Below are positions 4,101 through 36,958 of a stretch of DNA of 64,000 bases, one piece after another. Location of the stretch: positions 4,080-68,079 of the forward strand of contig DIWN01000058.1 of assembly GCA_002423495.1 (NCBI GenBank), in the 5' to 3' direction. Under the pieces are notes generated by a model. That model was given only the letters and a program-made list of their open reading frames with translations, was not told where the DNA came from and ran no database searches. Position 1 is the stretch's first letter. Each line of letters begins with the position of its first letter. The translations under genes and the position numbers were made by a program. The DNA comes from Anaerolineaceae bacterium UBA6105. GTDB lineage: Bacteria > Chloroflexota > Anaerolineae > Anaerolineales > Anaerolineaceae.

Positions 4101-6463
4101 CATTGCTAAAATCCGACGTGCTCGCAGCCAACCAGCAGTTCCTGCCAGCCCTCGCAGTCCTCGAGGACATCCTGACCAAATTGGAATTTGCTCCGGAGAT
4201 GCTTGGGAGTGTGGCTGGGGATGCGGCTGAACAGAACCTTGACTATCCTGCTTACAATCGCGCCGGACTCTACTACCGGGCTGCCCAACTCGAACGAATG
4301 ATTGGCGATCTGCTGGTTTCTCAAAAACATGCGGCTCTGGCCTTGAATGCTGACCCAGGCAACGAGCCTGCATTCCTGCTCCAGCTCGAACTTGCCCTGG
4401 CGGGCAGCGATTCCGAAAGTTTGTCCAACGCGCTCGATTTCCTCAACACCCAGGAAACCCGAACTCACACAGCAACCTCAACAGCTAACATCCTTGCTCT
4501 TGACGCGATGCTGAGAGATGACCTGCCAAAAGCGCGCTTGCTTTGGGAGCACTTCCTTTCTGATAAAACACACTCACCCACTGCCCGGGCGCTTGAAAGC
4601 TTATTTGCCCATCAGAGCGGCAGCGCGGAATCAGCTGCAAATGTATTAACAGAAGCGGTAGAGATGGTCGATGAGCTTGAGATCTACCTGCGGAGCCAAT
4701 CTTTCGATATTGCGAGCCATTTTAATTGGATCTGGCACACGCTTGCTGTGGCTAAAGCTGCGTGGCAGCTATCCATTTGGGATATTGCTGACCGCTTGCT
4801 TGAAGCAGCGCTTTCTGTTGCCAAGATTAACCCCATCGCCAATAAGCTCCTGGCAGAATACCTGACAGACAAAACCAGGCAGACGAACAACGCGCACTTT
4901 TTGCGCCTGCTGAGCCATGCCCCAAAGGCTTTCGATCCGCAGCATTCAGATTTCGACATAATCGAAGAGCAAATCTCGATTGCTGGTCGCGCAATCGCCC
5001 CTTCAGAACTTCTGCCAACCCTGAAGATCAACCAGGCGCTCAAAAATGGGTATTGGTCAGAGGAAAACGATTTGCACAAACTCGTCACAAACGGCAAACA
5101 AGCTGCCCAGGCTCTTTCTGTGCTGGTGGACGATGCATCCATTGCGGACATCCTTGCAGGTTTCAGCAAAAACGCAGACGTCAACTTTCAGCAGGCAATC
5201 CAAAGCCTCCATTCAGACCCTGGCAAATCAGCAGCAATCGCCTTAAAGTTGCTTGAATTCCAGCCTGAAGACCCTGCGCTGCACGTTCTGCATGCCATTG
5301 CCTCCCGCAAAAACCCCCTCCTGGCAGCCGAATCGCTTGAGACTGCCCTCGCGATCTGGCCGGACGAACCGGATTGGCACGCACTGGCAGCGGCGATGTA
5401 CCAGGATGCCGGTCAATATCCCGAAGCAGCCAAACACCTCGAAGAAGCCATCCGGATTGCCCCAAAAGAGGCGCAATACTGGCAAATGCTCGGGGATGTG
5501 AAACTGCTCGAAAAAGATTATCACGCAGCCAAGGACTACTTTGGAAAGGCAACTGATCTCTTCCCTTCCAACCCGGAAGCACTGCACTCACTGGCCATCA
5601 TCAACCAACAGCTGGGCGAGCACCAGATCGCTATTCAGTGCCTTCGCAAAGCCAGCCAGCTCGACCCCGGTAACATTGTCTACGAAGAAGGCATTGCCCA
5701 GTCGCTGCTTGCTAGGCAGGATCTTCCTGAAGCCATTCAGCAGGCTGATGCCATTCTGAAAACGGATCCAAAGAACGAAAACGCCTGGCAAGTAAAGGTC
5801 AAGGCACTGCTCAAGAGCGGCAAACCAGAGGAAGCCCGGCAGGCAATCCATTTTGCCCTGGCGGTCGTCGAAAACCCTGTGCCCTTTGAGCTGCAGAAAA
5901 TTGACCTTGACAATGCCCGTAATCCCCACCAGGCAATGTTGTCATCACAAAAAATTGCTGAAAATTACCCCGAAAACGTGGCTGTTCTCAATAATCTCGC
6001 GCATAAACAAATCCAGATTGGCGAGATCGAGAAAGCGGAGCAGACCTTACAGCGCAGTTTGGTTCTGGACCAGTCCAACCCTGAAACGCTGGTTGCGCTT
6101 GGCAAGGTGGACCGCGTTCGCGGTAATCTGGACCAGGCACTCGCGCATCTCGCCCAGGCGATTGAACTGCAGCCAGGATTAATGGAAGCCTACCTCGAGA
6201 TGGGGCTCACCTACCAGGATCGCCGTGAGGTCAACAATGCCATCCAGACCTACCATAAAGCGATTGCCATGGTCAGCAACGATCCCCGCCCTTACCTGCA
6301 GGCTGCAGCTGCCTACAAGGAAAGCCGAGACTATCGCAATGCTGAATTTATGCTGCGCCAGGCTTCACAGCTTTCTCCATCAGACCAAAACATCCGCCGG
6401 CAGCTTGCCGCGGTGGTAGCACTCAATATTGTCAATAATCTCCAGGAGGCTCCTAAAAGATGA
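1124..6463 (+). CDS. giant tetratricopeptide-repeat (TPR) protein, ~1779 aa, function unknown
   Basis: Uninterrupted 5.3-kb ORF with many 34-aa TPR-pattern units, e.g. PEALHSLAIINQQLGEHQIAIQCLRKASQLDPGN. AAGGAG lies before ATG 1124 (the track start is GTG 1118). Confidence 0.85.
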   Translation: MSIERLLDQIRVRFDSQTARAVVSAFRAESLAWHYLDTTPDLEQWLDFASDDLSRWQPGVLALFSLDHCLPEQDLTDLETKLPAELNERVANVFEMTRLTGLEPTSLADAALLALHLREFRRDEGSWKGLSENLLSGKCRLPVWKTAFAILPQLVPDFDAAMDSLVTELSPQYAETLGSLIVHQVIINPTDENIRYQTYRRRLQKAPIDLQISSLRAMRSVEDESLIKLLANSFLAQVQSANGDFNKNAGQSTVESFRQQAVLSQIAGQPAQASRAIDHAFNALNRQQAEILRNLAFELETSSPEEARKTWEEILRLQPDNTTYKKEYAEFLIANDDPDYGYEILQEIPDDATRALYALRYPVTSATDPEGTHSLDKALEKTTLQTSNSRFSSESDNLKAARYAFENKKYQTASNFIRKALAENPNNLEAIKLSGLIDRHLANIDDAIESSALLAVFEPQNQTNKKDLASLYLQSQQPENALKIYQDLIHASSEPSRTDLLNFAEISIKASQAEKAIPIAQAFLKKDAFDGEALVLLCNALIVTGKHDEAVAVLEKASAVAPEKPASWLSLARIWTSLGQEEKAMQALRKAKAALPDDPAILSALGSLYLANDQPTEAISVLRQAFQLDPSSSSVRKSLAQAYLTHGYIDEAWTTIAPLEDDYTSDPELAYVLGQTLAAMGDLNGARPVLRFAWQSNRSDNALKSYAELLIKSYSEGVKPGTQEVKEMSQLLSIMEERQQERDGLFDMRLLQADLKASLGMHDAAYQDYLQLLDFPEARSPRSYHHLQFQTGKTALALGLTDISLASLQEAVLIDPDDLPSRHTLAKAYMEANLEDEGFATARSAMQIAPTEIENVLWYSDFMGGHNNAREAIQVLKDTIHLRPDDKALYLTLARTYVNLNQIEETKETLNQMLALEDIETEEYVNVANLYLHMNQPDEASLIIKKAISDNPFPDFAESCDLIYSVLKLGDSAAALQLITDLEPALQANLAYPLLKSDVLAANQQFLPALAVLEDILTKLEFAPEMLGSVAGDAAEQNLDYPAYNRAGLYYRAAQLERMIGDLLVSQKHAALALNADPGNEPAFLLQLELALAGSDSESLSNALDFLNTQETRTHTATSTANILALDAMLRDDLPKARLLWEHFLSDKTHSPTARALESLFAHQSGSAESAANVLTEAVEMVDELEIYLRSQSFDIASHFNWIWHTLAVAKAAWQLSIWDIADRLLEAALSVAKINPIANKLLAEYLTDKTRQTNNAHFLRLLSHAPKAFDPQHSDFDIIEEQISIAGRAIAPSELLPTLKINQALKNGYWSEENDLHKLVTNGKQAAQALSVLVDDASIADILAGFSKNADVNFQQAIQSLHSDPGKSAAIALKLLEFQPEDPALHVLHAIASRKNPLLAAESLETALAIWPDEPDWHALAAAMYQDAGQYPEAAKHLEEAIRIAPKEAQYWQMLGDVKLLEKDYHAAKDYFGKATDLFPSNPEALHSLAIINQQLGEHQIAIQCLRKASQLDPGNIVYEEGIAQSLLARQDLPEAIQQADAILKTDPKNENAWQVKVKALLKSGKPEEARQAIHFALAVVENPVPFELQKIDLDNARNPHQAMLSSQKIAENYPENVAVLNNLAHKQIQIGEIEKAEQTLQRSLVLDQSNPETLVALGKVDRVRGNLDQALAHLAQAIELQPGLMEAYLEMGLTYQDRREVNNAIQTYHKAIAMVSNDPRPYLQAAAAYKESRDYRNAEFMLRQASQLSPSDQNIRRQLAAVVALNIVNNLQEAPKR

Positions 6464-9228
6464 GACCTTACAATGCCCGCAAAAGTGACGAGGTGCTGGT
6501 TGTCAGGCGCGGAAAGTTCCTGACTTTGCTTCAGACCGCGCTGAGCAACCGCGAATTCCAGTTTGCCCGCCAGGCTTCTTTGATCTGGCTGGCGAGTTAC
6601 CCAGGTGATCTTCTGATCAACTTTATCTACGCTTCCGTGTTGGCAGAACTTGGCGACACCGAAATGGCGGGTAAAAACCTGGCCAAACTCTTGGCATATG
6701 ACCCCGAGTTCGTGGAAGCTGCCAGCCTGCTGGATCGTCTCACCGGGGAAAGCAATCGCGACACCCACGCCAACCTGTTGTATTTGCAGCGCGGCACCTC
6801 CAGCGCGAAATCTCCGACCGCCTGGCTCGATGGCTTAATCGCTGCCCGCAACGCGTGGGAGAGCGGTGATCTGACCGGCGCGGAAAAGGCCATTCTCGAG
6901 TCCCTGGCGCACAACCCCCGTTCACCTTTACCCGCGGCTTTCCACATGCAGATCATCCACAAAACCAACAATACCACCCTGCTCGAAACCCTCGCGGGCA
7001 TTTACAGCAGCCGCTGGCCGGATTGTGTCCAGATCAAGGTCCTCTCAGCCATTGCCGATATTCAGCAGGGCAACGACACTGCCGGCGTCGAAAAAATGCA
7101 CTGGTGTGCTGCGCATGACGTCAGCGGGCAGGTCATCAACCGCCTGCTGGGACCCAATCACACCTACAAGCCCCTCTGGCCAGAAGATCTCAAGGTCTAT
7201 CTCGATCTGCCCGTACCAGCTACTGTCGCAGCGGATTTGGGATGGAATGTGCTTTCAAACGCGGATTTTGTTGCCTCGGATAGCGCTGGTAAGGAAGCAA
7301 CCCCGCAAACAGCTGAAGAAATCATCAACGACGATCCCACCCTGGCGCTTCACTTGCCAGATTACCTGGTTGACGAATTGGCTGAGTCTGGGGATGTGGA
7401 TTATTCCGAAGTCCCAACCAGCTCCTTCTTCCTCCAGGACATTGCCACACCTCCTCTGCCGGACGGACACACAAATGAGGTTCCTGCCCTTCATTCCCCC
7501 GATTCGCGAAAGTCAGCACCCATTTCCGAGGAATCACAGGCTACTGTCCTCGCGATGACCGAAATTCAAACTGAGTTTGAAAAAGTGGCCCGAAAAATGA
7601 ACAAATCCGAGCTCATCAATACCGATGGGCGTTTTCCCAGTTACGTAATTCTGACTTCCCGCGGAAATCTTGAGAAAAAGTACGGCGCGAACACGGCTGA
7701 TGTCGTGATCGAATCGATGCGCAAATTGAGTCTTAACATCGTCGACCTGCCGGGCTGGAACAGTCTCGTTTACGTACCTGATGACGAAACCAGCGCCCGT
7801 GAACAGGCTCTGGACCCCATTCAAGCCAGTGATGCCTGGAAGATCAAACTTTCTCTCACGGATCTGGATGCCAAACTCGCCTCCCAAGGAGAGATGATTG
7901 GCGCGCTGCTGATCATTGGCGGCAATGACATCGTACCTTTCCACATGCTACCCAACCCAACCGATGATTCGGATGTGAATGTGCCTTCCGACAATCCCTA
8001 TGCCACTCTCGATGAAAATTACTTTATCCAGCAGTGGCCTGTTGGTCGCATCCCGGATGAAGCAGGCAGCGATGCCGGCTATCTGCTCGAGCAACTGCGT
8101 TTCCTGACCAAAGAGTACGAGCTGAAAGTCAAGTCAAAAAAGAGTATTTCAACCAATATTCTCGCAAATCTGCTCCGCAGCCTGGCAGCCCGTTTCCAGA
8201 GTTTTAACGTTCGGTTTCAGAAGCCCGACAACATCGGTTGCACAGCTGAAGTTTGGAAGCCGGCTTCATCTGAAATCTTCGCTGTTATTGACCATGCAGA
8301 CCGCCTGCTGAGTTCTCCGCCAACCAACAATAACAACCTCCTCAACGGGCAGATATCTGACCCCAAATTTGCCTACTTCAATCTGCACGGACTCAAGGAT
8401 TCCCCCGAGTGGTATGGTCAGCGCGACCTTGCCAGGCCTTCAACCGATCCGGAATATCCGGTCGCGATGGAGCCCACCAACTTTAATCCCCAGACTTCTT
8501 CCCCTGAAATTGTGCTGAGTGAGGCCTGTTACGGCGCCAACATCCTCGATAAAAAGGTTAACGAAGCCATTTCGCTCAACTTCCTTGCCAGCGGTACGCG
8601 GGCCTTTGTCGGCTCAACTTGCATCGCCTACGGCTCCGTGAGCAAAAGTCTGGTGGCCGCAGATTTACTCGCCTATCACTTCTGGACCCACGTCAAAGCC
8701 GAAGTTTCCGTTGGCTACGCCCTGATGCGCGCCAAACTTGCCCTGGCAAAGAAGATGACCGAAGATCAGGGCTACCTGGACGGCGAAGACCAGAAAACCA
8801 TTCTTTCCTTCGTGCTCTACGGCGACCCACTGGCTTCCAGCGTGAATATTAAGGAAGTCACAAAACCAGCCATCCGCCCAACCACCACCCCGGAGCTCAA
8901 GACCATCAGCGACTCACGCGAAGAATTGATCGTGGCCGCTAATGAAATGCCGGATGAGATCCTGGAAAAGGTAAGGAAGGTCATCAGCAGTTACCTGCCG
9001 GGTTTGGATGACGCCACTGTCTCGCTCAACCCGCAACTGACCAACTTCAAGCTTGATCCAGCCATGGTCCAGGCACACCGCCAGAAGTTTGATTATGTCA
9101 GCCAAAGCCAGCGCTATGTGGTGACGCTTAAAAAGAGCTACGAATACCGCCAGCACAACCACAACCACTTCGCTCGCGTGACCTTTAACCAAAAAGGCGA
9201 CATGTTGAAATTGAGTATGTCGCGCTAA
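6460..9228 (+). CDS. TPR-like N-terminal region fused to a clan CD cysteine-peptidase-like domain (peptidase C25/gingipain-like)
   Basis: ATGA overlap with the TPR gene. LLIIGGNDIVPF...SDNPYATLDEN...WPVGRIP, then YFNLHGL (His codon 8386-8388) and LSEACYGAN (Cys codon 8527-8529), resemble C25 family signatures recalled from memory. Confidence 0.6.
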   Translation: MRPYNARKSDEVLVVRRGKFLTLLQTALSNREFQFARQASLIWLASYPGDLLINFIYASVLAELGDTEMAGKNLAKLLAYDPEFVEAASLLDRLTGESNRDTHANLLYLQRGTSSAKSPTAWLDGLIAARNAWESGDLTGAEKAILESLAHNPRSPLPAAFHMQIIHKTNNTTLLETLAGIYSSRWPDCVQIKVLSAIADIQQGNDTAGVEKMHWCAAHDVSGQVINRLLGPNHTYKPLWPEDLKVYLDLPVPATVAADLGWNVLSNADFVASDSAGKEATPQTAEEIINDDPTLALHLPDYLVDELAESGDVDYSEVPTSSFFLQDIATPPLPDGHTNEVPALHSPDSRKSAPISEESQATVLAMTEIQTEFEKVARKMNKSELINTDGRFPSYVILTSRGNLEKKYGANTADVVIESMRKLSLNIVDLPGWNSLVYVPDDETSAREQALDPIQASDAWKIKLSLTDLDAKLASQGEMIGALLIIGGNDIVPFHMLPNPTDDSDVNVPSDNPYATLDENYFIQQWPVGRIPDEAGSDAGYLLEQLRFLTKEYELKVKSKKSISTNILANLLRSLAARFQSFNVRFQKPDNIGCTAEVWKPASSEIFAVIDHADRLLSSPPTNNNNLLNGQISDPKFAYFNLHGLKDSPEWYGQRDLARPSTDPEYPVAMEPTNFNPQTSSPEIVLSEACYGANILDKKVNEAISLNFLASGTRAFVGSTCIAYGSVSKSLVAADLLAYHFWTHVKAEVSVGYALMRAKLALAKKMTEDQGYLDGEDQKTILSFVLYGDPLASSVNIKEVTKPAIRPTTTPELKTISDSREELIVAANEMPDEILEKVRKVISSYLPGLDDATVSLNPQLTNFKLDPAMVQAHRQKFDYVSQSQRYVVTLKKSYEYRQHNHNHFARVTFNQKGDMLKLSMSR

Positions 9229-9526: not shown

Positions 9527-11413
9527 ATGCACGGATATAGTGGAAAAATCCTTCATATTGACCTGAAAACGAAGAAAAATTGGGTCGAAACCAAACCAGA
9601 GGAATGGTACAAAATTTACATCGGTGGGGTCTCAATGGCTTCACGGCTCTTATGGGAAAATATCACTCCCGGCTGCGATCCACTCGACGACGGCAACCCC
9701 ATTTGCATTGCAAATGGCATCTTCACCGGCACACCGGTGCCTGTTGGCGGCAAATTTGGTCTGGCTTCCAAATCGCCCCTCACCGGCTTCATCGGCGATA
9801 GTCTTTCCGGCAGCTGGTTCTCTATCGCATTGAAACGCGCTGGCTGGGACGGGCTGGTGTTGCACAACAGTTGCGACAGCTGGACTCAGCTTTTTATTGA
9901 TGACGAGCGCGTGCAGTTCAACGATGCCACTTACCTGCTCGGCAAAGGCACCTACGAAACCGAAGAAGCCATTCGCGCAAAACTCGGCGATGAACAGATC
10001 CGTTCCTGCACCATCGGTCCTTGCGGCGAAAATCTGGTGCGTTTTGCCAACGTCACCAATGATGGCCGCCAGGCTGGTCGTACCGGTCATGGCATGATTT
10101 GGGGGCATAAAAAACTCAAGGCAGTTTCTGTGCGTGGTACTCGCGGCGTAACCGTCTACGATCCCAAAACGCTCAATCAACTTTCTTTTGATATTTCCAA
10201 GAGTGCGCAAGGCAAAGACACTGAAAAATACCGCATTTACGGTACCTCCACCGGTTTACTATCCACTAACAAAATGGGCGTCTTACCTACCCGCAATTTC
10301 CAGGAAGGCGTTTTTGAGGATGCCGAACTAGTCAGCGGTGAATACTTGGATAAGCATCACAAAGTCAAGGTGATTGCTTGTGCCCAGTGCCCCATTGCCT
10401 GTGAGCAAATGTCGTTGGTCAAGACCGGACCCTTTGCTGGCGCGATGACAGGTATTGAATACGAATGTCTCTTTGCCAACAGTTCCAACCTGGGCATCTC
10501 GGATATCCGATCCTCCATCAAGCTCATCACCCTTGCGGACCACGATGGGATGGATGCCATCACCATGGGCGGCACAATCGGATGGGCGATGGAATGCTAC
10601 GAGCGAGGCGTGCTGAAGAAGGAAGACTTTGCCAGCAAAGCTCACCCCGAAGGGCTCGAATTAAACTTCGGCAATGGCGAAGCCGCTGTTGCCCTGGCTG
10701 AAATGATCCGTGATCAGGAAGGGATCGGAAAAATTCTTGCCCAGGGAACCCGCATCGCCAGCAGAACTATTGACGAGGAACGCGGGACAGAGACATTCAA
10801 ATGGGCTATGAACACTAAAGGTCTTGAAGCCGCTGGTTACGACGCACGCGCGCTCAAGACGTTTGCCGTCGGGCTTGCCACTGGCACCCGCGGCGGCTGC
10901 CACAATCGCTCTGCTGCATACGATCCGGACATGAAAGGCGAAACCAACCGTCTGACTGTTGATGAAACCCGCGGTCGGGTTGCAGCAGACTCAGAAGAAT
11001 ATGCTGCCGTTTACGACACTCTGCCCCTGTGCAAGTTCATCCGGCGCTGTTTCACCGGTAAAGCCGACCGGGCTGGTGCATGGCCTGCCATCGCCAAACT
11101 GATCAATGCCACTACTGGCTGGGACTTTGATTACGATGCCGTTGATTTGATCGGTGTGCGCGCTTGCACTATCAAAAAAGCTTTCAACATTCGCGAAGGC
11201 TGGACTGAGAAAGATGATGACTTGCCCTGGCGATGGAAGCACGACCCCTTCACTAAAGGTCCCAGTGCAGGCGTATTTGTGACCGATGAAGAACTTGAAT
11301 ATATGAAAGACCTTTATTACAAGGCCAAAGGCTGGACCGAGGAAGGTATGATCCCCAAAGAACTATTGATCAAACTCGGCATGTCCGACGTGGCTGAAGA
11401 AATCGGAGTCTAA
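9527..11413 (+). CDS. aor: tungsten-type aldehyde:ferredoxin oxidoreductase family protein
   Basis: Full-length AOR-family similarity (KSPLTGF, CAQCPIAC cluster motif, GIEYE, TRGGCH); SD AGGAG upstream. Confidence 0.9.
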   Translation: MHGYSGKILHIDLKTKKNWVETKPEEWYKIYIGGVSMASRLLWENITPGCDPLDDGNPICIANGIFTGTPVPVGGKFGLASKSPLTGFIGDSLSGSWFSIALKRAGWDGLVLHNSCDSWTQLFIDDERVQFNDATYLLGKGTYETEEAIRAKLGDEQIRSCTIGPCGENLVRFANVTNDGRQAGRTGHGMIWGHKKLKAVSVRGTRGVTVYDPKTLNQLSFDISKSAQGKDTEKYRIYGTSTGLLSTNKMGVLPTRNFQEGVFEDAELVSGEYLDKHHKVKVIACAQCPIACEQMSLVKTGPFAGAMTGIEYECLFANSSNLGISDIRSSIKLITLADHDGMDAITMGGTIGWAMECYERGVLKKEDFASKAHPEGLELNFGNGEAAVALAEMIRDQEGIGKILAQGTRIASRTIDEERGTETFKWAMNTKGLEAAGYDARALKTFAVGLATGTRGGCHNRSAAYDPDMKGETNRLTVDETRGRVAADSEEYAAVYDTLPLCKFIRRCFTGKADRAGAWPAIAKLINATTGWDFDYDAVDLIGVRACTIKKAFNIREGWTEKDDDLPWRWKHDPFTKGPSAGVFVTDEELEYMKDLYYKAKGWTEEGMIPKELLIKLGMSDVAEEIGV

Positions 11414-11423
11414 CGAGGAGCTT

Positions 11424-11936
11424 ATGGCAACCAGTACATCAAAATATGCATATATCGATTGCGATCCCAACCTTTGCGTGGGCTGTCAACTGTGTGAATA
11501 CATTTGTGCGTTCACAAAAACTGGAGAATACAACTCTTATCGCAGCCGCATCCGCACTGTTCGCGTTGATGAAGTCCTCATCACCGCCATCGCCTGCCGC
11601 ACCTGCGAAAACGCTCCCTGCGTGATTGTCTGCCCGCGCGATGCCCTGACCCAGGACCCTGTCACCGGCATCATCGACGTCAACGCCAGCAAGTGTGATG
11701 GCTGCGCCTGGTGCATCGAAGCCTGCGACTTCGGCGCCATCTCCATCAACCCGCAAACCACTCTGGCAGAGATCTGCGACCAGTGCAGGGACGAACCAGA
11801 TGGACCTCAGTGTGTAAAGTGGTGCCCCAAAGAAGCGCTCACCCTGACCACACCCGACCAGCGTGCCCAGAAGACTCGCCGCAATCTGATTACCGAATCT
11901 TTAAATATGCCCCAGAAAGCAACGGATCCTAAATGA
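11424..11936 (+). CDS. 4Fe-4S multi-cluster ferredoxin-type subunit (AOR partner; BamC/AorA-like size)
   Basis: Four Cys clusters: CVGCQLCEYIC, CRTCENAPCVIVCP, CDGCAWCIEAC, CDQC...CVKWCP. Confidence 0.8.
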   Translation: MATSTSKYAYIDCDPNLCVGCQLCEYICAFTKTGEYNSYRSRIRTVRVDEVLITAIACRTCENAPCVIVCPRDALTQDPVTGIIDVNASKCDGCAWCIEACDFGAISINPQTTLAEICDQCRDEPDGPQCVKWCPKEALTLTTPDQRAQKTRRNLITESLNMPQKATDPK

Positions 11937-14470
11937 GTGAAGACCCCATCACCAAGAGCCATGCCGCGGACTTCCCTGAGGATGAGCCGCGCATTGGTGT
12001 TTACGTCTGCCATTGCGGCAGTAACATTGCCGGCGTCATTCCCCCGGAAGAAGTCGTGGATTTTGCCGGCAAACTTCCTGGCGTCGTTCGTTCGATCGAT
12101 ACCATGTATGCCTGTGCCGACAGCGGTCAGCGTCTCATCAAAGAAGACATTGCCAAGTACGGCCTGAATCGCGTTGTTGTTGCAGCTTGTTCAGTGCGCA
12201 TGCACGAACCGACTTTCCGAGGTTGCGTGGCTGAAGCTGGTATAAACCCATTCCTGATGGAAATGGCGAACATCCGCGAGCAGTGCACCTGGGCGCATGG
12301 ACACGACCGTGCAGGCGCGCTTGAAAAAGCCAAAGACCTCACCGCAGCGGCAGTTGCAAAAGCCACATTCCTGACCCCGCTGGATATGATCAAAGTGCCC
12401 GTCACCAAACGCGCCTTGGTCATCGGCGGAGGTGTGGCTGGCATCACCGCAGCTCTCGACCTAGCTGAACAGAACATTCCGGTCACCTTAGTAGAAAAAG
12501 AACCAACGATTGGAGGGGTCATGGCGCAACTTAACAAGACCTTTCCAACGATGGACTGCAGTATATGAATTCTTGCACCAAAAATGGTTGACGCGGCGCG
12601 TCAGCCCCTGATCGAAGTAAAGACCTTTACCGAAGTTGAAAAAGTCGAAGGATATGTCGGCAATTTTGTTGTGACCCTTAGGGAAAAAGCCAAGTATGTG
12701 CGTGCTGACCGCTGCAATGGCTGCGGCGCCTGCACCAAGGCTTGCCCAATTGAAATCCCCAACTACTTTGAAATGGACCTTGCTCCGCGCAAGGCCGCGT
12801 ATATCCCCATGAGCCAGGCAGTGCCTCTCATTTACAACATCGACATGGACGCCTGTATCCATTGCTATAAATGTGTGGAAGCCTGCGGAGCCCTCGAAGC
12901 AATTGACTTCAGCATGGAAGACAAACTGGTGGAGCAGGAAATAGGCGCGATCGTGGTTGCCACCGGCTTCGGTCACTTTGACCCAACCCCCATGACCGAA
13001 TATGGTTATGGTCGCTTCCCTAATGTAATTACCGCTATGGAGATGGAAAGGTTGAATAACTCAGCCGGACCTACCAACGGCACCCTGATCCGCCCAAGTG
13101 ATGGAAAAGAACCGAAACGGATTGCTATCATCAATTGCGTCGGTTCACGAGACAAGCGCTTCAACCCAGGCTGCTCAAACTTCTGCTGCATGTACGCGAT
13201 AAAAAACGCGCTGTTGCTCAAGCAAATGCATCCCGATAATGAGATTTCAATCTACTACATCGACATCCGCACTCCCTCCAAGGGTTACGAAGAATTCTAT
13301 GACCGGGCACGCGAATCCGGCATCCACTTTATCCAGGGACGCCCTGCTGAAATCACGGAAAATCCCGATTCACACCAGCTCTTCATTGCCTCGGAAGATA
13401 TTGCGCTCGGAAAGGTAATTGAACGCGAGTATGACATGGTCATGCTCAATCAAGCCGCCATTCCCCAACCCGACCAGAACCACATGAGCTCCGTGCTGAA
13501 CGTGGCTCAGTCCCCCGGCGGTTGGTTCATGGAATATCACCCCAAATTGCGCCCAATGGACAGCCCCACCGACGGTATATTCTTCGCCGGCGCTAACCTG
13601 GGTCCCAAAGATATCCCGGCCAGCGTCGCCCAGGGTTCCGCAGCTGCCTCGCGCGCTTCGCGCATTCTGCACTCCGACAGCTGGCAGATCGAACCTACCG
13701 TAGCTGTGGTCTGGCCGGATCGCTGCGTCAGCGCCGATGGTCAAGCTTGTGGCATTTGTGCCCGCGCCTGCCCCTATGGTGCCATCGATTACACCAAGGG
13801 TCTCGCGGCGGAAGTGATCACGGCCAAGTGCCACGGTTGTGGCGCCTGTGTTGGCGAATGTCCGCATAACGCAATCACCCAACTCCACTACACCGACGCC
13901 CAGGTACTGGCACAAATCCGTACCCTGTTGGCAACTGAACCGGAGAAGAAAATTCTTGCTTTCCGCTGCCAGTGGTGCTCCTATGGCGGCGCAGACCTTG
14001 CCGGTACTTCGCATTTTGAATATAGCGCCAATGAACGTGGATTGCGCGTGATGTGTTCAGCGCGTATGGATGCTGACCTGATCTACGAGGCTTACCGCCT
14101 CGGTGCTGGTGGGATCCTCTATTCGGGATGTCATCCGCAGGACTGCCACTACATCACCGGTCAGATTGTCGGCGCTAAACGTGCAGCGCGGCTTGAAAAA
14201 ATGTTTGAGCGCATGCAAATGAGCCCGGGTCGCTTCCGCGTAGAGTGGATCAGCGCGGCTGAAGGCGATAAATATGCCCGTGTCATCAACGAAATGCAAG
14301 CCGCATTGGATGAAATTCCCGAGGATGTCCTCAAGGCCGAAATCGAACGCCTGCGCCCTGAAATGGCTAAGAAACTTGCCAAGCTGGATGATATTCCTGG
14401 TGTAGCTCAAGCAATGGTACAAGTCGACTTCATCGTCGAAGAAATGATTGGCAAGGAGAAAGTCGCATGA
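11933..14470 (+). CDS. hdrA: HdrA-like FAD/Fe-S flavoprotein with fused C-terminal MvhD-like domain; selenocysteine at in-frame TGA 12566-12568
   Basis: ORFs 11933..12568 and 12584..14470 are in the same frame. Read-through gives FPTMDCSI-U-ILAPKMV, the conserved HdrA motif. GGGVAGITAALDLA is the FAD fold. C-terminal AFRCQWCSYGGADLAG...YSGCHPQDCHY is MvhD-like. Confidence 0.8.
12586..12606 (+). promoter_or_regulatory. candidate bacterial SECIS stem-loop
   Basis: GGUUGACGC-GGC-GCGUCAGCC (one G-U pair), starting 17 nt after the UGA. Confidence 0.5.
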
Positions 14471-15060
14471 GTGGTTTTGCTGACCCCTACGCCCTTTCCG
14501 AACGCGTAAAAGCTATTCCTGGAGGGGACATGCTGATGATGTGCTATTCGTGTGGCACCTGCACCAGCAAATGCATGATCCAGACCAAACTTGAGAGCAG
14601 TTACAACCCGCGGCGCCTGATCCGTGAAGCAGTTTTCAACATGGACGATGCCGCCTTTGCAGACAAAACCACCTGGCTTTGCACCGCCTGTGACCTCTGT
14701 TACCCCGCCTGCCCGCAAAAAATCCACATTTCCGGCGTTATCAACGCAGTCAAGGCGCTGGCAGTCGAAAGTGGAAAAAAGACGCCCTACCAGGTTGCCA
14801 AAGTGGATGAATCCACCTGTGTCGCCTGCGGTTTGTGCGAAAAGATCTGCCCCTACGAAGCGATCAGCCTGGTTGAAAAGCGGGTTCCCTTCCGCGGTAA
14901 CATCACGGTTGCCTCTGTAGACTCGGGTAAATGCATGGCTTGCGGGTTGTGCACTGCTGCCTGTCGTTCGACTTCCATTCGCCTGACTGAGGAATACAAT
15001 GATGTCGAATTGATCAATTCGCTCTGGTCCTGGTTAGAAACAGAAAGGGTATCCTCATGA
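14467..15060 (+). CDS. HdrC-like 2x[4Fe-4S] domain fused to a second 2x[4Fe-4S] ferredoxin domain
   Basis: CYSCGTCTSKC...CTACDLCYPACP, then CVACGLCEKICP...CMACGLCTAACR. ATGA overlap with hdrA. Confidence 0.7.
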   Translation: MSGFADPYALSERVKAIPGGDMLMMCYSCGTCTSKCMIQTKLESSYNPRRLIREAVFNMDDAAFADKTTWLCTACDLCYPACPQKIHISGVINAVKALAVESGKKTPYQVAKVDESTCVACGLCEKICPYEAISLVEKRVPFRGNITVASVDSGKCMACGLCTAACRSTSIRLTEEYNDVELINSLWSWLETERVSS

Positions 15061-15497
15061 GCGAGACCCCTAAATTAGTTCTTTTTCAATGCCAATGGTG
15101 CCTTTTTTCGCCAGATGACCAGCAATGGGTCGACCATCAACTGCCTGAAAACATCCATCTTATAAAAGTTCCCTGCACCGGCCGCATCAATCCGCTTTAT
15201 ATTCTGAATGCAGTTCAGGGTGGCGCGGATGGCGTCATGGTCAGCGGTTGTCTGCCCGAACAGTGCCATTTCAAAACTGGCAACATTGGAGCCCGCCGGC
15301 AGTTGGAAGAGTTTTCCGATTATCTTGATCACATCGGCTATGAACAGAACAGGATACGTTTCCTCTGGCTGGATCTACAGGACAGGGGAATCATCCAGAA
15401 GGAACTGGCTGCCTTTGAGGCGCAAATAAAAGCGCTCGGACCTGCCCACAACCTTGCCACGCGCGTCACCGAACCAGCTGGAGGTGCCAATGCATGA
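15057..15497 (+). CDS. MvhD/FlxD-like protein
   Basis: FQCQWC...VPCTGRINPLYILNAVQGGADGVMVSGCLPEQCHF. ATGA overlap upstream. Confidence 0.8.
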   Translation: MSETPKLVLFQCQWCLFSPDDQQWVDHQLPENIHLIKVPCTGRINPLYILNAVQGGADGVMVSGCLPEQCHFKTGNIGARRQLEEFSDYLDHIGYEQNRIRFLWLDLQDRGIIQKELAAFEAQIKALGPAHNLATRVTEPAGGANA

Positions 15498-16443
15498 TTT
15501 AGACGCCCTCAAAGCTGAAGCCAAACGTCTTCTTGAGGAAGGTGTGGTGGAAATGATCATTGGCTTCAAAGCCGGCGATACTCCCCTCCACCCGCAGCCA
15601 GCGTTCTTCAAAACACCTGAAGAAGTGGATCAGCTTGTATACAACGCGCTTTGCCAGAACAATCTTGCCACCTACCTCACCCGCTTTCCAAAGACCCTGA
15701 AAATCGGCATGTTAGTGCGGGGCTGTGAGAACCGTTCTGTAAATGCCCTCGTTTTCGAAGGGCAGCATCCCAGGGAGGCTCTCTATCTGATCGGTGTTCC
15801 TTGCGAAGGCATCATCGACTGGCGAAAGATTGTCGCGCAAGCCGGTGAAGAGGTGATCAGCGTCACTGAACAGAGCGATAACACCATTTTGGTCGAATCG
15901 AAGTCAGGCTTCTTTACCCTCGAGAAAAACACCCTGCTACACGAAAGCTGCGCACGCTGCATTCATCCGAACCCTGTTTCTGCTGATATCGTCATCGGCG
16001 AACTTCTGCCCGAAGGCGATCCCGCCCTGGCGCGCGAGCAGGTTGCCGCTTTTGCGGAGCTCTCCCTGCCGGAAAGGTATGCCTGGTTTCGCCAGGAAGC
16101 AGAGCGCTGCATCCGTTGTTACGCCTGCCGTGAAGCCTGCCCGATGTGTTATTGCGAAGAGTGTTTTGTGGATCACATCTCCCCGCGTTGGACCGAAAGC
16201 GGCACAACCCCTGCTGGCATGCAAGGCTGGCATATTGTGCGCGCCTTCCATCAAACCGGACGCTGCACCAGTTGCGGCGCTTGCGAACGCGCTTGCCCGA
16301 TGGACATCAAGATGACTTATCTGACTGAGAAACTCAATGAAGATATGCGACAAAAGTACAACTTCGAAGTCGGGATGGACACCACCACTCCACCGCCATT
16401 CTCGACCATCACCCTGGACGATAAGTCCCGCTTTGTGGTTTGA
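15490..16443 (+). CDS. Fe-S subunit, FlxB/FlxC-like
   Basis: CIRCYACREACPMCYC and CTSCGACERACP motifs. Start moved to ATG 15490 (GGAGG upstream, 8-nt overlap) instead of track start 15454. Confidence 0.6.
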   Translation: MHDLDALKAEAKRLLEEGVVEMIIGFKAGDTPLHPQPAFFKTPEEVDQLVYNALCQNNLATYLTRFPKTLKIGMLVRGCENRSVNALVFEGQHPREALYLIGVPCEGIIDWRKIVAQAGEEVISVTEQSDNTILVESKSGFFTLEKNTLLHESCARCIHPNPVSADIVIGELLPEGDPALAREQVAAFAELSLPERYAWFRQEAERCIRCYACREACPMCYCEECFVDHISPRWTESGTTPAGMQGWHIVRAFHQTGRCTSCGACERACPMDIKMTYLTEKLNEDMRQKYNFEVGMDTTTPPPFSTITLDDKSRFVV

Positions 16444-16454
16444 GGAGAGCCAAC

Positions 16455-17474
16455 ATGAACCTTATCCTCAAAAAAGACCAACTCAATCACCTGCTTAATT
16501 CCTGGCGCCAGGATTATGAAGTTTACGCCCCGCAAGCTCTGCAAAATTACACCCATTTTCTGCCGCTGCAGGATGGTTTTGAACTTGCCTTCGATAAAGC
16601 CCACAACACGCGCATTCCGCCAAAAGCCCTCTTTTTACCGACATCGGAGGCACTGCTAAAATTTACAAAATTTGGCGGATACGAACAAGTCCCACTTGAA
16701 ACTGCTCCTCGTATCATCTTTGGCATCCGTCCCTGTGACGCGCATGCTATGACCATGCTCGACACCGTCTTTGAGCAGGAACGCTACACAGACCCTCACT
16801 GGAAAGCCCGCCGCGATGCCACGCTTTTGGTCGGCCTTGGCTGCCACGAACCCTGCCAGACTGGTTTCTGCACCACAGTCGGCTCAGGTCCCTTCAACCA
16901 CGCCGGTCTGGACGCGATCCTGACCGACCTCGGTGAGATTTTCCTGGTTGAAACGCTGACTGAGAAAGGTGAACAACTTTTCACCCAACTTGAAACTGCC
17001 ACTGAGGAGCAAAGCAAACAAGCAAGCGAGGTGCAGCAAGCTGCCGCAGCAAGCATGCCAATTGCCTTTGAAACGGAAGGGTTGAAAGAAAAACTCGATC
17101 AAAACTTCGACAGTCCCTATTGGGAAGAAATTTCGCGCTCCTGTCTTGGCTGCGGGGTGTGCACGTTCCTCTGCCCCACCTGCTTCTGCTTCGACATCGT
17201 CGACGAAGCCCAACGCGGCGAACGCGTGCGCAACTGGGACACCTGCATGTTCCGCACTTACTCGCTCGAAGCGTCCGGGCACAATCCGCGCCCCAGTCGT
17301 GTGGAGCGGACACGGCAGCGCCTGAGTCACAAATACACCCATTGGGTGGATCAAATCAACCAGATCGGCTGCACCGGTTGCGGTCGCTGCGTGCGATACT
17401 GCCCGGTCGGTCTGGATATTCGCGCTATGCTGCGCAAAGCAAGTCAACTTCCAAGTGAGGTAGCCCATGTCTAA
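16455..17474 (+). CDS. Fe-S subunit, sulfhydrogenase-beta/AsrA/FlxB-like
   Basis: CLGCGVCTFLCPTCFCFD and CTGCGRCVRYCPVGLDI. GAGGAG lies before ATG 16455. Confidence 0.65.
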   Translation: MNLILKKDQLNHLLNSWRQDYEVYAPQALQNYTHFLPLQDGFELAFDKAHNTRIPPKALFLPTSEALLKFTKFGGYEQVPLETAPRIIFGIRPCDAHAMTMLDTVFEQERYTDPHWKARRDATLLVGLGCHEPCQTGFCTTVGSGPFNHAGLDAILTDLGEIFLVETLTEKGEQLFTQLETATEEQSKQASEVQQAAAASMPIAFETEGLKEKLDQNFDSPYWEEISRSCLGCGVCTFLCPTCFCFDIVDEAQRGERVRNWDTCMFRTYSLEASGHNPRPSRVERTRQRLSHKYTHWVDQINQIGCTGCGRCVRYCPVGLDIRAMLRKASQLPSEVAHV

Positions 17475-18324
17475 TGAGGCTCACAGTCCTTATCTGCCTA
17501 TTCCCATGCATGTTTTGCATGCCTATTACGAGTCTAATGACCGCTCCCTCAAAACCCTGGAGCTGAGTTTTGACGACCCCCAGGATGCCCGCGAATTCTT
17601 CGCTGCCTACAACCCGGGTCAATTCTGCCTGTTGAGCGTTATTGGCAAGGGAGAATCCGCTCTCGGAATTGCCAGTGCTGCCTGGGAAGGGGACTTCGTG
17701 CGCTTTACCATCCAAAAGATGGGTTCTGTCACAACTGCACTGCATGAACTCAAACCCGGCGATCCGATAGGTATTCGTGGACCGCTTGGCAACGGTTTCC
17801 CGCTGGAAGACTGGAAGGGCAAGAACCTGGTCATCATTGGCGGCGGTTGTGCTTTCTCAACCCTATACGCCCTCACAAAACATCTGCACCATCCCTCCAA
17901 TCGCGGGGATTACGGCAAAATGACTGTCATTTACGGAACACGCACCTCTGGTCTGTGCATGTACAAGCAGGATATTGCCGCCTGGCATCAGCGGGATGAC
18001 ATGGAAGTGCATCAAGCCATTGACGTCCCGGAGCAGGATTGGCTTCACCATGTTGGCTATGTGCCTGATGTGGTCAAAGAGGTCAAACCATCTCCAGTCA
18101 ATAGCGTGGCAGTCGTTTGTGGTCCTCCCATCATGACCAAATACACCCTGCCAGCACTCGTCGAGCTTGGTTTCACCCCCGAAACCATTTTCACCTCGCT
18201 CGAAAAACGCATGAAATGCGGCGTCGGCAAGTGTGGTCGCTGCAATCTTGGTCCAAAATACATCTGCAAAGACGGTCCGGTCTTCAGCCTCGCTGAACTC
18301 AACGACCTGCCGGCAGACCTTTAG
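17467..18324 (+). CDS. FAD/NAD(P)H-binding [2Fe-2S] oxidoreductase, PyrK/AsrB/sulfhydrogenase-gamma/FlxA-like
   Basis: FAD-binding-like VRFTIQ, GGGCAFS nucleotide fold, C-terminal CGVGKCGRCNLGPKYICKDGPVF. Confidence 0.8.
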   Translation: MSNEAHSPYLPIPMHVLHAYYESNDRSLKTLELSFDDPQDAREFFAAYNPGQFCLLSVIGKGESALGIASAAWEGDFVRFTIQKMGSVTTALHELKPGDPIGIRGPLGNGFPLEDWKGKNLVIIGGGCAFSTLYALTKHLHHPSNRGDYGKMTVIYGTRTSGLCMYKQDIAAWHQRDDMEVHQAIDVPEQDWLHHVGYVPDVVKEVKPSPVNSVAVVCGPPIMTKYTLPALVELGFTPETIFTSLEKRMKCGVGKCGRCNLGPKYICKDGPVFSLAELNDLPADL

Positions 18325-18331
18325 GAGAAAA

Positions 18332-19315
18332 ATGAGTCGCGGTATTCCAAAGAAAACCAAAACCGAACACGAAATGACCATCGCGCGCCCAATGGTGACG
18401 CGTAATTACCTGATGCGGTGGGATCTCGACCGCTGTGTTGGCTGCCAAATTGGTCCGATTGTCTGTCCCAAAGAGGCTCTCACGCATGTTGAAGCGGAAC
18501 TGCAGGACGGACGCATCGTCAAACGCGCCTCGGTGGACGTAGACGAGACGAAATGCGTCAATTGCGGCATTTGCGTGGTATCCTGCCCCACCCATGCCAT
18601 TTCACTTACGGTCAATGGCAAACCTGAAATTCCGGTCATCGAGTACGGCGCTTACCCCGAATTCATTACCAAGACTATTTTTCGCAAGGAAAAGTTCGAT
18701 TTTTCGCTTAAAGAATTCCTGATCGACAACTGCCCCACCGGCGTCATCAGCTACGATGAAGTACGCGACACCATGCGGGTTGATTTTGATAACTGCATCC
18801 ACTGTCGCCAGTGTGAAGTTGCCAGTAAGGGTGCATTCGAGGTCCGGCAGGCCTGGGTCGGCTCAGTTGAGCTGCACCGTGAACGCTGCGTGGAAGGCTG
18901 CCTGGCCTGCGCCGATATCTGCCCCACCCGTGCCCTCCATATCGACGATTCCGGCGAGCTGGTTTTAGCGGATTATTACTGCATCAAATGCGGCGCCTGC
19001 ATGGAAGTTTGCCCCATAAAAGCCGAATATGCGGAAGAGCCCTTTGAGTTCGAATCGCAGGGCATGACCCTTCAACGGACATTAAAACGCCTGACGAACG
19101 AGAACGAACTGCCTATCAAAGTGGAACGCTGGCGGGTGAACCACACCGAAGTTTCGAGCGCATCCTGGATCGAGGCACTGCGCAAGGTATCGGATGATAA
19201 AGCCAAGTCCGTTGAGATTGACCGTAAGCGCGCATTGCGCCGGGCTGATCTGATTGACGCGCTGCGTGGTAATTTAACTGCAAAAACGCAACTCAAAAAA
19301 GAAATAGAAAAATAG
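18332..19315 (+). CDS. polyferredoxin-like multi-[4Fe-4S] protein with Cys-free basic C-terminal tail
   Basis: CVGCQIGPIVCP, CVNCGICVVSCP, CIHCRQCEV, CLACADICP, CIKCGACMEVCP. AGGAGA lies before ATG 18332 (track start 18233 overlaps the previous gene). Confidence 0.7.
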   Translation: MSRGIPKKTKTEHEMTIARPMVTRNYLMRWDLDRCVGCQIGPIVCPKEALTHVEAELQDGRIVKRASVDVDETKCVNCGICVVSCPTHAISLTVNGKPEIPVIEYGAYPEFITKTIFRKEKFDFSLKEFLIDNCPTGVISYDEVRDTMRVDFDNCIHCRQCEVASKGAFEVRQAWVGSVELHRERCVEGCLACADICPTRALHIDDSGELVLADYYCIKCGACMEVCPIKAEYAEEPFEFESQGMTLQRTLKRLTNENELPIKVERWRVNHTEVSSASWIEALRKVSDDKAKSVEIDRKRALRRADLIDALRGNLTAKTQLKKEIEK

Positions 19316-19340: not shown

Positions 19341-19640
19341 ATGAAAATACCTCAGTTATTGATGTTAATACCCTTTCTCAAAAAGCTAATGGTTGAAACA
19401 TCAGCAGAAGCCTTCCATAAAGCTTGCAAAATCCTGGATCAAAATGGAATTCAGTACCGCATCCAGACGATCCGCCTGCGCGGAATCATTGGCACAGGAT
19501 TGGAATCCAGCAGCTATATGCGCTTCAATGTCAGCCAAAACAAATGGGGTTCACAATCAGCAACTTCTTATGCGATTTACGTTCGTCCCAAAGATTACGA
19601 AAGAGCCCGCCAGTTGACAGGCTCAATCAAAATGGAATAA
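19341..19640 (+). CDS. small hypothetical protein
   Basis: ORF with a GAGAGGA SD-like sequence. No family recognised. The 3' end overlaps the convergent gene by 18 nt. Confidence 0.35.
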   Translation: MKIPQLLMLIPFLKKLMVETSAEAFHKACKILDQNGIQYRIQTIRLRGIIGTGLESSSYMRFNVSQNKWGSQSATSYAIYVRPKDYERARQLTGSIKME

Positions 19641-21008
19641 GTCGTTCTGCTCTGGTGGCATTGCTCCAAAGCCGTGCCTTGCGGTAAAGTCAAAAGACCA
19701 ACCCGTCGGACGGTTGTATTCAGGATTCCGTTCGCCTTGTTTGAAAATCAGAACCCGTGCTTTCGAACGCAACCGCCCAAAGTCGCGTAAGTTCGGTGTA
19801 GCTGTGATGATATTTCTGAACGTGCCAGTATTAATGTAATAGGTCTCAACTCCTTTTTCCACTTTCATTAATTGCACCAAAGGATTGTGCGTGTGACCCG
19901 AGACGATACACCGTATAGGCGAGTTTGGCTTCTGCAAACATTCTTCTTTCGAGATCAATTCGGATTGATCACCTATTTTTGAACGGCGTGAAACCGGAGC
20001 CAACATAGCCTTGACCATCCAAAAAGGCAGCCCTTTTCGCCAGAGTCGTGTCTTCAATACTGCCTTCAAGGTTGCGCCAGATAAATTGGTCATGCCCGCA
20101 AGTGCAATCATCTGCTTGCCAATTTGCGGGGAAAAGGCGAGATCGTCAAGCATTCTAACGAAGACCGGCTCTATCGTCCGCCAAACTTCCTTCATGGAAA
20201 AACCTGGCGTAGAAAACAAAAAGTTGATCAAGGCGTTCGAGGGTCTGACGTTATCAAAATCAATCAATCGCTGGAACATGACAGAAAGATTCTGGTCCTC
20301 CAGGATACCTTCCTCGGTGTAGTATTCTTTAAAGAGAATTGGCAATTTTGCAGCAATTTCCGTGGTAATGATATCCCCGAAACAAGGGCTGTCGTAGTAC
20401 TTCTTGTCGATTAGGGTTGGAATTTCGGGCCACAAGCGCACATCCGCCCCAAAGTTGGCTGCATCATACTCATGGCCGTGGCGGATAAGTATCTTGGTCT
20501 CACCATTTGTACGATGCAGGTACTGATTTTCAAACGGCAGGTCGGATGGCTCCATCCCCAGGAAGCTGCGGGTGCGATTGCGCACCCGTCGGCTGGCATT
20601 TAATAGCCGATCGTGATTTCCGGGGATGAAATGGATTTGCACCGGACGACGCATTTGGACGGTCAGGTTGCGAAAAATTTCCAGGGTGGCAGCCACCCGG
20701 GGCTCAGCTGCAATGGCATCCATAATCTCGTTAATCCGCCCTTCAAGCTCACTGCCCTCGGTGACCTCATCGTTGTGCGCGTAAGGTCGCAGACGATCTT
20801 TAAGCCAAAGTGCTGAACGCGTAATCTCAAAGATATCTCCCGCTAAAACCAGGTCGATATCCTGGATATTGTCATAGCGGATAAACTCGAGAATTTCATT
20901 AAAGAACGCGCGGTAGACCTCAGGCGGAAGATTGTGATTGAATTGGTGCTCCCCAATCGTCAGGGAATTATTGTCCGCAAAGTGCAAATCCGACATTACG
21001 ATGATCAA
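19623..21008 (-). CDS. calcineurin-like metallophosphoesterase with large internal insertion
   Basis: Motifs SDLHF, AGDIFE, GNHD, RHGHEYD, SGHTHNP. Confidence 0.8.
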   Translation of the reverse strand: MIIVMSDLHFADNNSLTIGEHQFNHNLPPEVYRAFFNEILEFIRYDNIQDIDLVLAGDIFEITRSALWLKDRLRPYAHNDEVTEGSELEGRINEIMDAIAAEPRVAATLEIFRNLTVQMRRPVQIHFIPGNHDRLLNASRRVRNRTRSFLGMEPSDLPFENQYLHRTNGETKILIRHGHEYDAANFGADVRLWPEIPTLIDKKYYDSPCFGDIITTEIAAKLPILFKEYYTEEGILEDQNLSVMFQRLIDFDNVRPSNALINFLFSTPGFSMKEVWRTIEPVFVRMLDDLAFSPQIGKQMIALAGMTNLSGATLKAVLKTRLWRKGLPFWMVKAMLAPVSRRSKIGDQSELISKEECLQKPNSPIRCIVSGHTHNPLVQLMKVEKGVETYYINTGTFRNIITATPNLRDFGRLRSKARVLIFKQGERNPEYNRPTGWSFDFTARHGFGAMPPEQNDLFHFD

Positions 21009-21071
21009 AGTTTTTCTCCTGGGAGTATTGTATTACAAGACCCGCCTGATTTTGTTCATAGTAGCATCCAA

Positions 21072-23006: not shown

Positions 23007-23034
23007 CTCCCGTGCCCGGGAGACCCTGGCTGTT

Positions 23035-33679: not shown

Positions 33680-33687
33680 GAGCCGCA

Positions 33688-35304: not shown

Positions 35305-35392
35305 AATTGAAAAGCTCTGATTAGAAAGACTCTGCGGGTTGGTCTGCAAGAGGCAAACTGACCTGCTTCATTTTATAAAGTAACTTAGAAGG

Positions 35393-35421
35393 TTGACCAA
35401 ACTACTTGAATTGAGTACACT
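35393..35421 (+). promoter_or_regulatory. sigma-70-like promoter candidate for the hydrogenase operon
   Basis: TTGACC-N17-TACACT. Confidence 0.45.
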
Positions 35422-35423
35422 AC

Positions 35424-35441
35424 GTGTAATATTTTTCACAA
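35424..35441 (+). promoter_or_regulatory. Rex-like operator candidate immediately after the -10
   Basis: GTGTAATatttTTCACAA against TTGTGAAnnnnTTCACAA (11 of 14; the right half is perfect). Confidence 0.4.
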
Positions 35442-35479
35442 AGGTAACAAGCCTTTGAGATATAGGAGCATGTAACAAA

Positions 35480-36922: not shown

Positions 36923-36958
36923 GTTTGGGCTTAATCAATTAGGAAGGTAAGTATAGAT

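Follow-up and report, generated by a model that had tools for sequence, protein, structure and literature searches.

A probable selenocysteine codon and a conserved downstream hairpin in an hdrA-mvhD gene of an Anaerolineaceae bacterium

One hdrA-mvhD reading frame interrupted by a single UGA

The DNA analyzed here (the window) is a stretch of 64,000 nucleotides from Anaerolineaceae bacterium UBA6105 (assembly GCA_002423495.1, contig DIWN01000058.1, positions 4,080 to 68,079 of the forward strand). Its subject is a gene at window positions 11933-14470 that encodes an HdrA protein fused to an MvhD domain and is interrupted by one in-frame UGA, a codon that very probably specifies selenocysteine (Sec). 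A short hairpin, a candidate selenocysteine insertion sequence (SECIS), lies just beyond it. The features of the gene, with the evidence in brackets, are:

11933..14470, + strand: predicted single selenoprotein gene, HdrA-MvhD/FlpD (translation, Pfam, PDB matches)
12557..12559, + strand: TGC codon of Cys209, partner of the predicted Sec212 in DC-S-I-U (CxxU); corresponds to Cys194 of HdrA
12566..12568, + strand: UGA, predicted Sec212, aligned to Cys197/Sec197 of HdrA (alignments, column counts)
12569..12585, + strand: spacer of 17 nt from the UGA to the hairpin, coding for I-L-A-P-K-(M) (22-sequence alignment)
12586..12606, + strand: candidate bacterial SECIS hairpin, GGUUGACGC-GGC-GCGUCAGCC (fold, conservation, likeness to fdhF)

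Two open reading frames (ORFs) share this frame, at 11933..12568 (211 aa) and 12584..14470 (628 aa), and the TGA at 12566-12568 is the sole break between them. An earlier reading, made from the sequence alone, had described the same stop and the same resumption at 12584. Translation of 11933-14470 gives one frame of 846 codons with a single internal stop (...KTFPTMDCSI*ILAPKMVDAARQP...). The read-through product has 845 residues, with the MvhD domain at its C-terminus and Sec at position 212. A six-frame scan of the window for TGA within an open frame ranked 12566-12568 by far the strongest (211 + 633 open codons) and found no other in-frame TGA selenoprotein candidate comparable to it.

The read-through protein was scanned against Pfam with Cys put in place of the stop. 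The start of an FAD/NAD(P)-binding Rossmann domain was found at residues 161-199, ferredoxin-type 4Fe-4S domains at approximately 255-319 and 605-649, and an MvhD/FlpD domain at residues 674-794 (5.6e-37). Residues 17-665 match HdrA of Methanothermococcus thermolithotrophicus (5odc_A) across the UGA with E=1.9e-235, which upholds the initial assignment of the codon to an hdrA gene. Since residues 669-805 in turn match MvhD chains in the PDB, the gene is an HdrA-MvhD fusion. Pfam and PDB matches together recover the HdrA architecture: an N-terminal iron-sulfur (Fe-S) domain, a domain of the thioredoxin reductase (TrxR) type that binds flavin adenine dinucleotide (FAD), and inserted and C-terminal ferredoxin domains. 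The UGA lies within this FAD domain, with the GxGxxG motif upstream and the remainder of the domain downstream, so that a genuine stop at 12566-12568 would cut this domain in two.

The UGA column in homologous genes

HMMER aligns the UGA with the second Cys of ...ktfptnDCsiCilapk... in 5odc_A. This is residue 197, a Cys in M. thermolithotrophicus (Cys197) and a Sec in M. maripaludis (Sec197). All four full-length homologues at 57-62% identity carry Cys at this column, as expected from the sequence-only reading, which had placed the UGA at a conserved Cys. That reading had also proposed an alignment of HdrA homologues as a check, and the codon itself was surveyed in 80 loci from reference genomes and 80 from metagenomes. 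Every locus containing the motif was read, giving 144 instances, and the column holds TGA in 48 and TGY in the other 96 (TGC 53, TGT 43), with nothing else.

The TGA carriers form two groups, 22 of Chloroflexota/Anaerolineae type (the window included, 63-96% protein identity) and 26 of deltaproteobacterial/Thermodesulfobacteriota type. Within the former, the proteins are 61-96% identical on both sides of the UGA, while four-fold degenerate sites around it differ pairwise by a median of 0.60, near saturation. Both halves of the gene are thus under purifying selection.

Selenoproteins of the HdrA family have long been established in Deltaproteobacteria, Clostridia and methanogens (PMC1794560). 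One HdrA protomer supplies Cys197 as a ligand to the N-terminal [4Fe-4S] cluster of the partner protomer (PMC9012536). The 2026 cryo-electron microscopy structure of the M. maripaludis Hdr-Vhu-Fwd complex places Sec197 and a Cys between cluster A3 and the FAD, where the pair possibly acts as a selenylsulfide relay (PMC13518236). Sec at this position, which the sequence-only reading had stated for HdrA of Methanococcales, is seen directly in this M. maripaludis structure.

The spacer and the hairpin downstream of the UGA

Between the TGA and the next in-frame ATG (12584) lie 15 nt. Among the 22 Chloroflexota-type sequences, the variable columns there are 6, 9, 12, 15 and 18 only, each of them a third codon position, and I-L-A-P-K is invariant. 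Because changes fall at third positions alone, the spacer is translated and not intergenic.

The hairpin begins 17 nt past the UGA, with 26 nt from UGA to loop. Its lower stem consists of two G-C pairs (12586-87 with 12605-06), followed by U12588 opposite a variable base at 12604. The upper stem of 6 bp (12589-12594 with 12598-12603) is closed by the apical loop GGC (12595-12597). The distance from UGA to loop accepted for bacterial SECIS elements by Zhang and Gladyshev in 2005 (bSECISearch) is reportedly 16-37 nt. An invariant 17-nt core, GTTGACGCGGCGCGTCA, covers 12587-12603 and has a single occurrence in the window. Folded alone (31 nt), the hairpin reaches -14.3 kcal/mol (z = -3.05; 1 of 200 shuffles as good). 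When 81 nt are folded together, the result is unremarkable (z only -0.97), because the flanks are unstructured.

Of the nine pairs, eight never vary among the Chloroflexota-type sequences; the exception is the third, U12588-12604, whose bases do not pair in 13 of 21 distinct sequences. A synonymous-site test was used for this hairpin in place of a covariation test. Within 60 codons on either side of the UGA, 74 columns of the 22-sequence alignment are degenerate and conserved in amino acid, and at least two codons are used in 69 of them (mean codon diversity 0.50). The five single-codon columns are +7 to +11, GTT GAC GCG GCG CGT (V-D-A-A-R), which is exactly the hairpin; the hypergeometric probability of five synonymous-invariant columns coinciding with it is P = 6e-8. 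The stem-loop that the sequence-only reading had pointed out at 12586-12606 is thus both stable when folded alone and frozen in its codons. Third-position changes in the gap followed by five frozen codons in the hairpin give the arrangement of a translated gap and then a bacterial SECIS.

The same contrast appears across the whole survey. The region from +16 to +48 folds with a median of -11.7 kcal/mol in TGA-type sequences (none weaker than -8.6), versus -5.1 in Cys-type sequences (Mann-Whitney p = 3e-18 over all 144 sequences, not corrected for phylogeny). A hairpin is present in every TGA-type sequence. The element is under RNA-level selection beyond the protein code, and it co-occurs with the UGA.

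Proposed recoding and rival readings

The UGA at 12566-12568 is very probably a selenocysteine codon, dependent on SelB and a SECIS, within a single hdrA-mvhD gene. On this model the two ORFs would be one gene, with the UGA recoded during translation by the standard bacterial mechanism. The in-ORF hairpin at 12586-12606 would act as the SECIS, recruiting SelB-GTP-Sec-tRNA(Sec) while the UGA occupies the A site. The predicted 845-residue product would carry Sec212 in D-C209-S-I-U212, at the Cys197/Sec197 position. Together with its CxxC/U partner, Sec212 would ligate or contact the N-terminal [4Fe-4S] cluster, on the path from the bifurcating FAD to it. At the level of interpretation, the initial proposal of a Sec codon, as opposed to a gene boundary or a pseudogene, is supported by the alignment column, the conservation of TGA, the selected hairpin and the split gene calls.

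Several observations weigh against this model. We infer SelB dependence, selenium incorporation and the redox role of the residue from sequence-level support throughout. The apical loop is GGC and lacks the U of the canonical GGUC. The Chloroflexota-type hairpin offers no covariation, since it does not vary, and its structure for that reason rests on the synonymous freeze and thermodynamics. Rfam gave no match to the hairpin, either in 12500-12700 at E<=10 or in the whole window at the gathering threshold, where tRNA-His alone was returned; this miss reflects the coverage of the library and is not evidence against a SECIS. Finally, the selenocysteine machinery was not seen. No tRNA-Sec was found by ARAGORN in the window and 160 related loci, or by Rfam in the window. 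Among 36 large ORFs of the window, Pfam/NCBIfam found no SelA, SelB or SelD, and the E. coli proteins gave no tblastn match at 1e-3 in the window and the 160 loci. A further ~10 kb of contig on each side, taken from public assemblies, holds no sel genes. These searches covered ~84 kb of the organism's own sequence, out of a genome of several Mb, and a miss is expected by chance, so that it says little either way.

The flanks of the contig carry cell-shape and division genes on one side and sigma-54 regulator genes on the other. Minus-strand ORFs at 19623-24075 have lengths like those of SelA, SelB and SelD and proved to be a metallophosphoesterase, a glycosyl-hydrolase-like protein and a threonine aldolase. 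An AIRS-family ORF at 47829-49007 is most likely HypE and not SelD, judging by its position after HypF and HypD (no family-specific model was applied). The wider lineage lends indirect support: Sec-containing formate dehydrogenases have been predicted in single-cell genomes of Anaerolineae and other Chloroflexi (PMC5736913), and tRNA-Sec species have been reported in Chloroflexi (PMC5389517).

The rival readings, grouped under the label ALTERNATIVES, are a pseudogene or error, global reassignment of UGA, a true stop and insertion of cysteine. A TGY codon mutated or miscalled to TGA would take just one base change (TGC/TGT to TGA), but the same TGA recurs in 48 independent loci, drawn from different assemblies and from two phyla, and this effectively excludes both a pseudogene and a sequencing error. 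Both sides of the codon are under purifying selection, and two independent assemblies give an identical 628-aa product with a 211-aa ORF directly upstream; this explanation is exceedingly improbable. Global reassignment is ruled out by the window itself, where TGA is the ordinary stop of 15 of the 35 confident genes. If the UGA were instead a real stop, the 211-aa polypeptide and the 628-aa polypeptide started at ATG 12584 would have to assemble as a split HdrA. Public gene callers do annotate two genes, an in-frame ATG lies 15 nt downstream, and split and fused HdrA variants exist in nature (PMC9012536). This ATG, however, encodes the conserved Met of the PKM motif, found in all Cys-type homologues too, and has no Shine-Dalgarno sequence before it. 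The gap changes at third codon positions only and keeps I-L-A-P-K, as expected of translated sequence. A stop would also delete the residue-197 Cys kept in every continuous homologue, besides cutting the FAD domain, and would leave the synonymous freeze of the hairpin unexplained. A split protein is thus very unlikely.

On the last reading the UGA is recoded to an amino acid other than Sec, either Cys by a tRNA-Sec-like opal suppressor, the selC* tRNA(Cys), and a SelB paralogue, or Cys or Trp by low-level near-cognate read-through. A selC* tRNA(Cys) with a UCA anticodon and a paired selB* has been described, and when tested in E. coli it decoded UGA as Cys (PMC5389517). Such a system could use a SECIS-like hairpin just as readily, and sequence alone cannot tell Sec from Cys. 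What makes this reading very unlikely is that selB*/cysS* are reported in deltaproteobacterial subgroups and not shown for Anaerolineae (PMC5389517), that HdrA of M. maripaludis has a confirmed Sec at this position (PMC13518236), and that a TGY codon would suffice for Cys, as it does in 96 homologues. Insertion of selenocysteine therefore remains the preferred reading of the UGA.

Comparison with other SECIS elements

The SelB-binding SECIS of E. coli fdhF, read from the genome, is the mini-hairpin GGUUGCA-GGUC-UGCACC (GGUUGCAGGUCUGCACC). Like it, the hairpin described here lies within the ORF just 3′ of the UGA, has a 5′ arm starting GGUUG and bears an apical loop that begins with GG. The third base is U in both; it is bulged in fdhF and mostly mismatched here. 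The two differ in position, the start of the hairpin being +21 here, counted from the U of the UGA, against +15 in fdhF (thus 6 nt further away here), and in the upper stem, which has 6 bp here versus 4 bp. The loop U that is missing from GGC contacts SelB in known complexes.

A closer comparison is provided by the HdrA-MvhD selenoproteins of deltaproteobacteria and syntrophs (the family of Zhang et al. 2006), which share the TGA column and the length of the fusion. Their hairpin covers the same codons, with a UGA-to-loop distance of 27 nt versus 26 nt here. Its architecture differs: a 7-bp stem, GGAUG(C/U)C, carries a GGUC loop, and the register is displaced from that of the Chloroflexota-type stem and its GGC loop. 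Over alignment columns 21-41, pairs join 24-30 with 35-41 in the deltaproteobacterial-type alignment and 21-29 with 33-41 in the Chloroflexota-type one. One pair of the deltaproteobacterial-type hairpin is compensatory (C-G in 17 sequences, U-A in 5, U.G in 4, no mismatch), and 97% of cells are paired. The proteins are only 41-45% identical in the C-terminal part, and their genes lack the neighboring oxidoreductase gene described below.

Either the SECIS at this site was remodelled, or it arose twice at the same site. The Chloroflexota element may be a SECIS variant of its own, with 17 nt frozen in sequence and a GGC loop, possibly read by a SelB of altered RNA specificity. Many Cys-type genes have a weak GAUG...CAUC hairpin at this site, imposed by the codons of D-x-x-x-H, and this could be the raw material for a SECIS. 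Two homologues with TGT at the column (L111:4280-4327, GATGCCGGTCGGCATC; L121:5586-5633, GATGTTGGTCGGCATC) still carry a hairpin of deltaproteobacterial type, and these look like remnant SECIS elements after recent Sec-to-Cys conversions.

Operon context

The hdrA-mvhD gene belongs to a tightly packed operon with partly overlapping genes. Its other members, all on the + strand, are:

9527..11413, + strand: tungsten-type aldehyde:ferredoxin oxidoreductase, AOR (Pfam AFOR_N, AFOR_C; PDB 1aor 1.7e-102; synteny)
11424..11936, + strand: 170-aa 4Fe-4S dicluster protein, electron-transfer subunit beside AOR (Pfam Fer4_11; synteny)
14467..15060, + strand: 197-aa protein with four CxxCxxCxxxC-type motifs, an HdrC-like half and a 2x[4Fe-4S] ferredoxin half
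15057..15497, + strand: stand-alone MvhD, 146 aa, all-Cys form (Pfam FlpD 2.2e-32)
15454-16443 (start uncertain), + strand: FdhB/FrhB-like Fe-S protein (PDB FdhB 9t1s_M 4e-25)
16440-17474, + strand: sulfhydrogenase beta-like protein (PDB SHI beta 9nez_B 2.5e-45)
17467-18324, + strand: sulfhydrogenase gamma-like FAD/NAD(P) subunit (PDB SHI gamma 9nez_C 1.9e-54)
18233-19315 (start uncertain), + strand: polyferredoxin (domain scans)

The order of AOR, Fe-S protein, HdrA(Sec)-MvhD, ferredoxin and MvhD is found in every Chloroflexota-type locus that is long enough and is absent from the deltaproteobacterial-type loci. The full order of 9527-19315 recurs in L003, L004, L006-L009, L015, L081-L083, L085, L086 and L088-L090 of the surveyed loci. 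Start/stop overlaps of 4 nt occur at 11933, 14467, 15057, 16440 and 17467, the ATG at 11933 lying on the stop codon of the Fe-S gene (ATGA). Such overlaps suggest translational coupling of the subunits.

Relative to HdrA of Methanococcales (M. maripaludis, and M. thermolithotrophicus in PDB 5ODC), the protein shares the four-domain organization, the DC-S-I-C/U motif and the association with MvhD. It differs in being bacterial (Anaerolineae), with MvhD fused at its C-terminus, and in having a candidate bacterial SECIS within the ORF in place of the archaeal SECIS of the 3′-UTR. Its neighbors are AOR and an NAD(P)H module and not the Vhu/Mvh hydrogenase, and the operon has no HdrB partner. Among the seven operon proteins scanned, Pfam found no CCG-domain protein of the HdrB/BamD kind, in a scan that covered the large ORFs of the window. 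A canonical HdrABC heterodisulfide reductase was rejected on this ground.

The other relevant system is class II benzoyl-CoA reductase (BCRII, BamBCDEFGHI). Here too, as with BamE/BamF, an HdrA-type bifurcating flavoprotein accompanies a tungsten enzyme of the AOR family and an Fe-S subunit, with a CxxC relay near the FAD and a selenoprotein within the module. The sequence-only reading had named BamE as a carrier of Sec at this position, whereas the structure preprint on the BCRII of G. metallireducens describes the Sec in BamF (Sec19). For BamE, that preprint proposes the Cys59-Cys62 disulfide as an analogous relay, which would pass the low-potential electron of the bifurcating FAD on to a [4Fe-4S] cluster. 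The operon was nevertheless rejected as a BCRII. Its AOR is nearer to that of P. furiosus (1aor, 1.7e-102 over the full length) than to BamB (4z3w, 3e-47 over the N-terminal 416 residues only), and the operon has neither a BamB-type subunit nor a BamD-like CCG protein. Its NAD(P)H module resembles sulfhydrogenase beta/gamma and not HydABC (BamGHI), and the HdrA has one TrxR-like domain, not two.

A full-text literature search found no paper describing this operon arrangement in its title or abstract. We tentatively consider, as a possibility that is not the likeliest, that the genes encode an undescribed tungsten-enzyme complex of Anaerolineae with the Sec-containing HdrA-MvhD as its bifurcating core and without HdrB. 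Its parts may be AOR and its Fe-S subunit, HdrA(Sec)-MvhD, the HdrC-like ferredoxin, the second MvhD, the FdhB-like protein, the sulfhydrogenase beta/gamma-like NAD(P)H module and the polyferredoxin. By analogy with BCRII, flavin-based bifurcation or confurcation could link the oxidation of NAD(P)H (or ferredoxin) to the acid/aldehyde couple, of very low potential, at tungsten, and the C209-x-x-U212 pair would relay the low-potential electron in such a complex.

Directly upstream of the operon, a 922-aa ORF (6460-9228) follows a 1781-aa TPR-repeat protein. It matches no Pfam family at 1e-5, and public records give a faint hint of Peptidase_C25. The contig upstream of the window (L167:5033-9565) encodes sigma-54, a PAS histidine kinase and a sigma-54-dependent response regulator. 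Located a few kb before the TPR protein and the AOR operon, these genes could regulate the operon.

Annotation in databases and significance

Two public assemblies call the gene as 211 aa plus 628 aa, the outcome that the sequence-only reading had anticipated for standard gene callers. In the protein database, the more than 100 homologue clusters above 75% identity are all fragments of ~628 aa that start just after the TGA. Often the shorter fragment has no annotation, and the longer carries the label “hydrogenase iron-sulfur subunit”. Anaerolineae are abundant in anaerobic digesters and sediments, and because databases hold two truncated proteins, reconstructions of their metabolism from protein domains overlook an intact bifurcating HdrA.

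Enzyme family, Sec position and recoding mechanism were all known before. What is new is the lineage with its operon context, the sequence-frozen variant of the putative SECIS with a GGC loop, and the finding that databases hold almost exclusively fragments. Recoding of the UGA as proposed would extend the HdrA selenoprotein family to Anaerolineae and imply a need for selenium in these organisms. The conserved AOR-linked operon is a more novel aspect than the selenoprotein itself, and the link to AOR points to a possible new electron-bifurcating aldehyde/acid oxidoreductase.

Elsewhere in the window, 33553-49007 holds a large cluster for an NAD-linked (Hox-like) [NiFe] hydrogenase, with genes for the small and large subunits followed by HypF, HypD and the probable HypE. 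This cluster also encodes two NuoF-like subunits and a NuoG-like subunit with a truncated molybdopterin domain.

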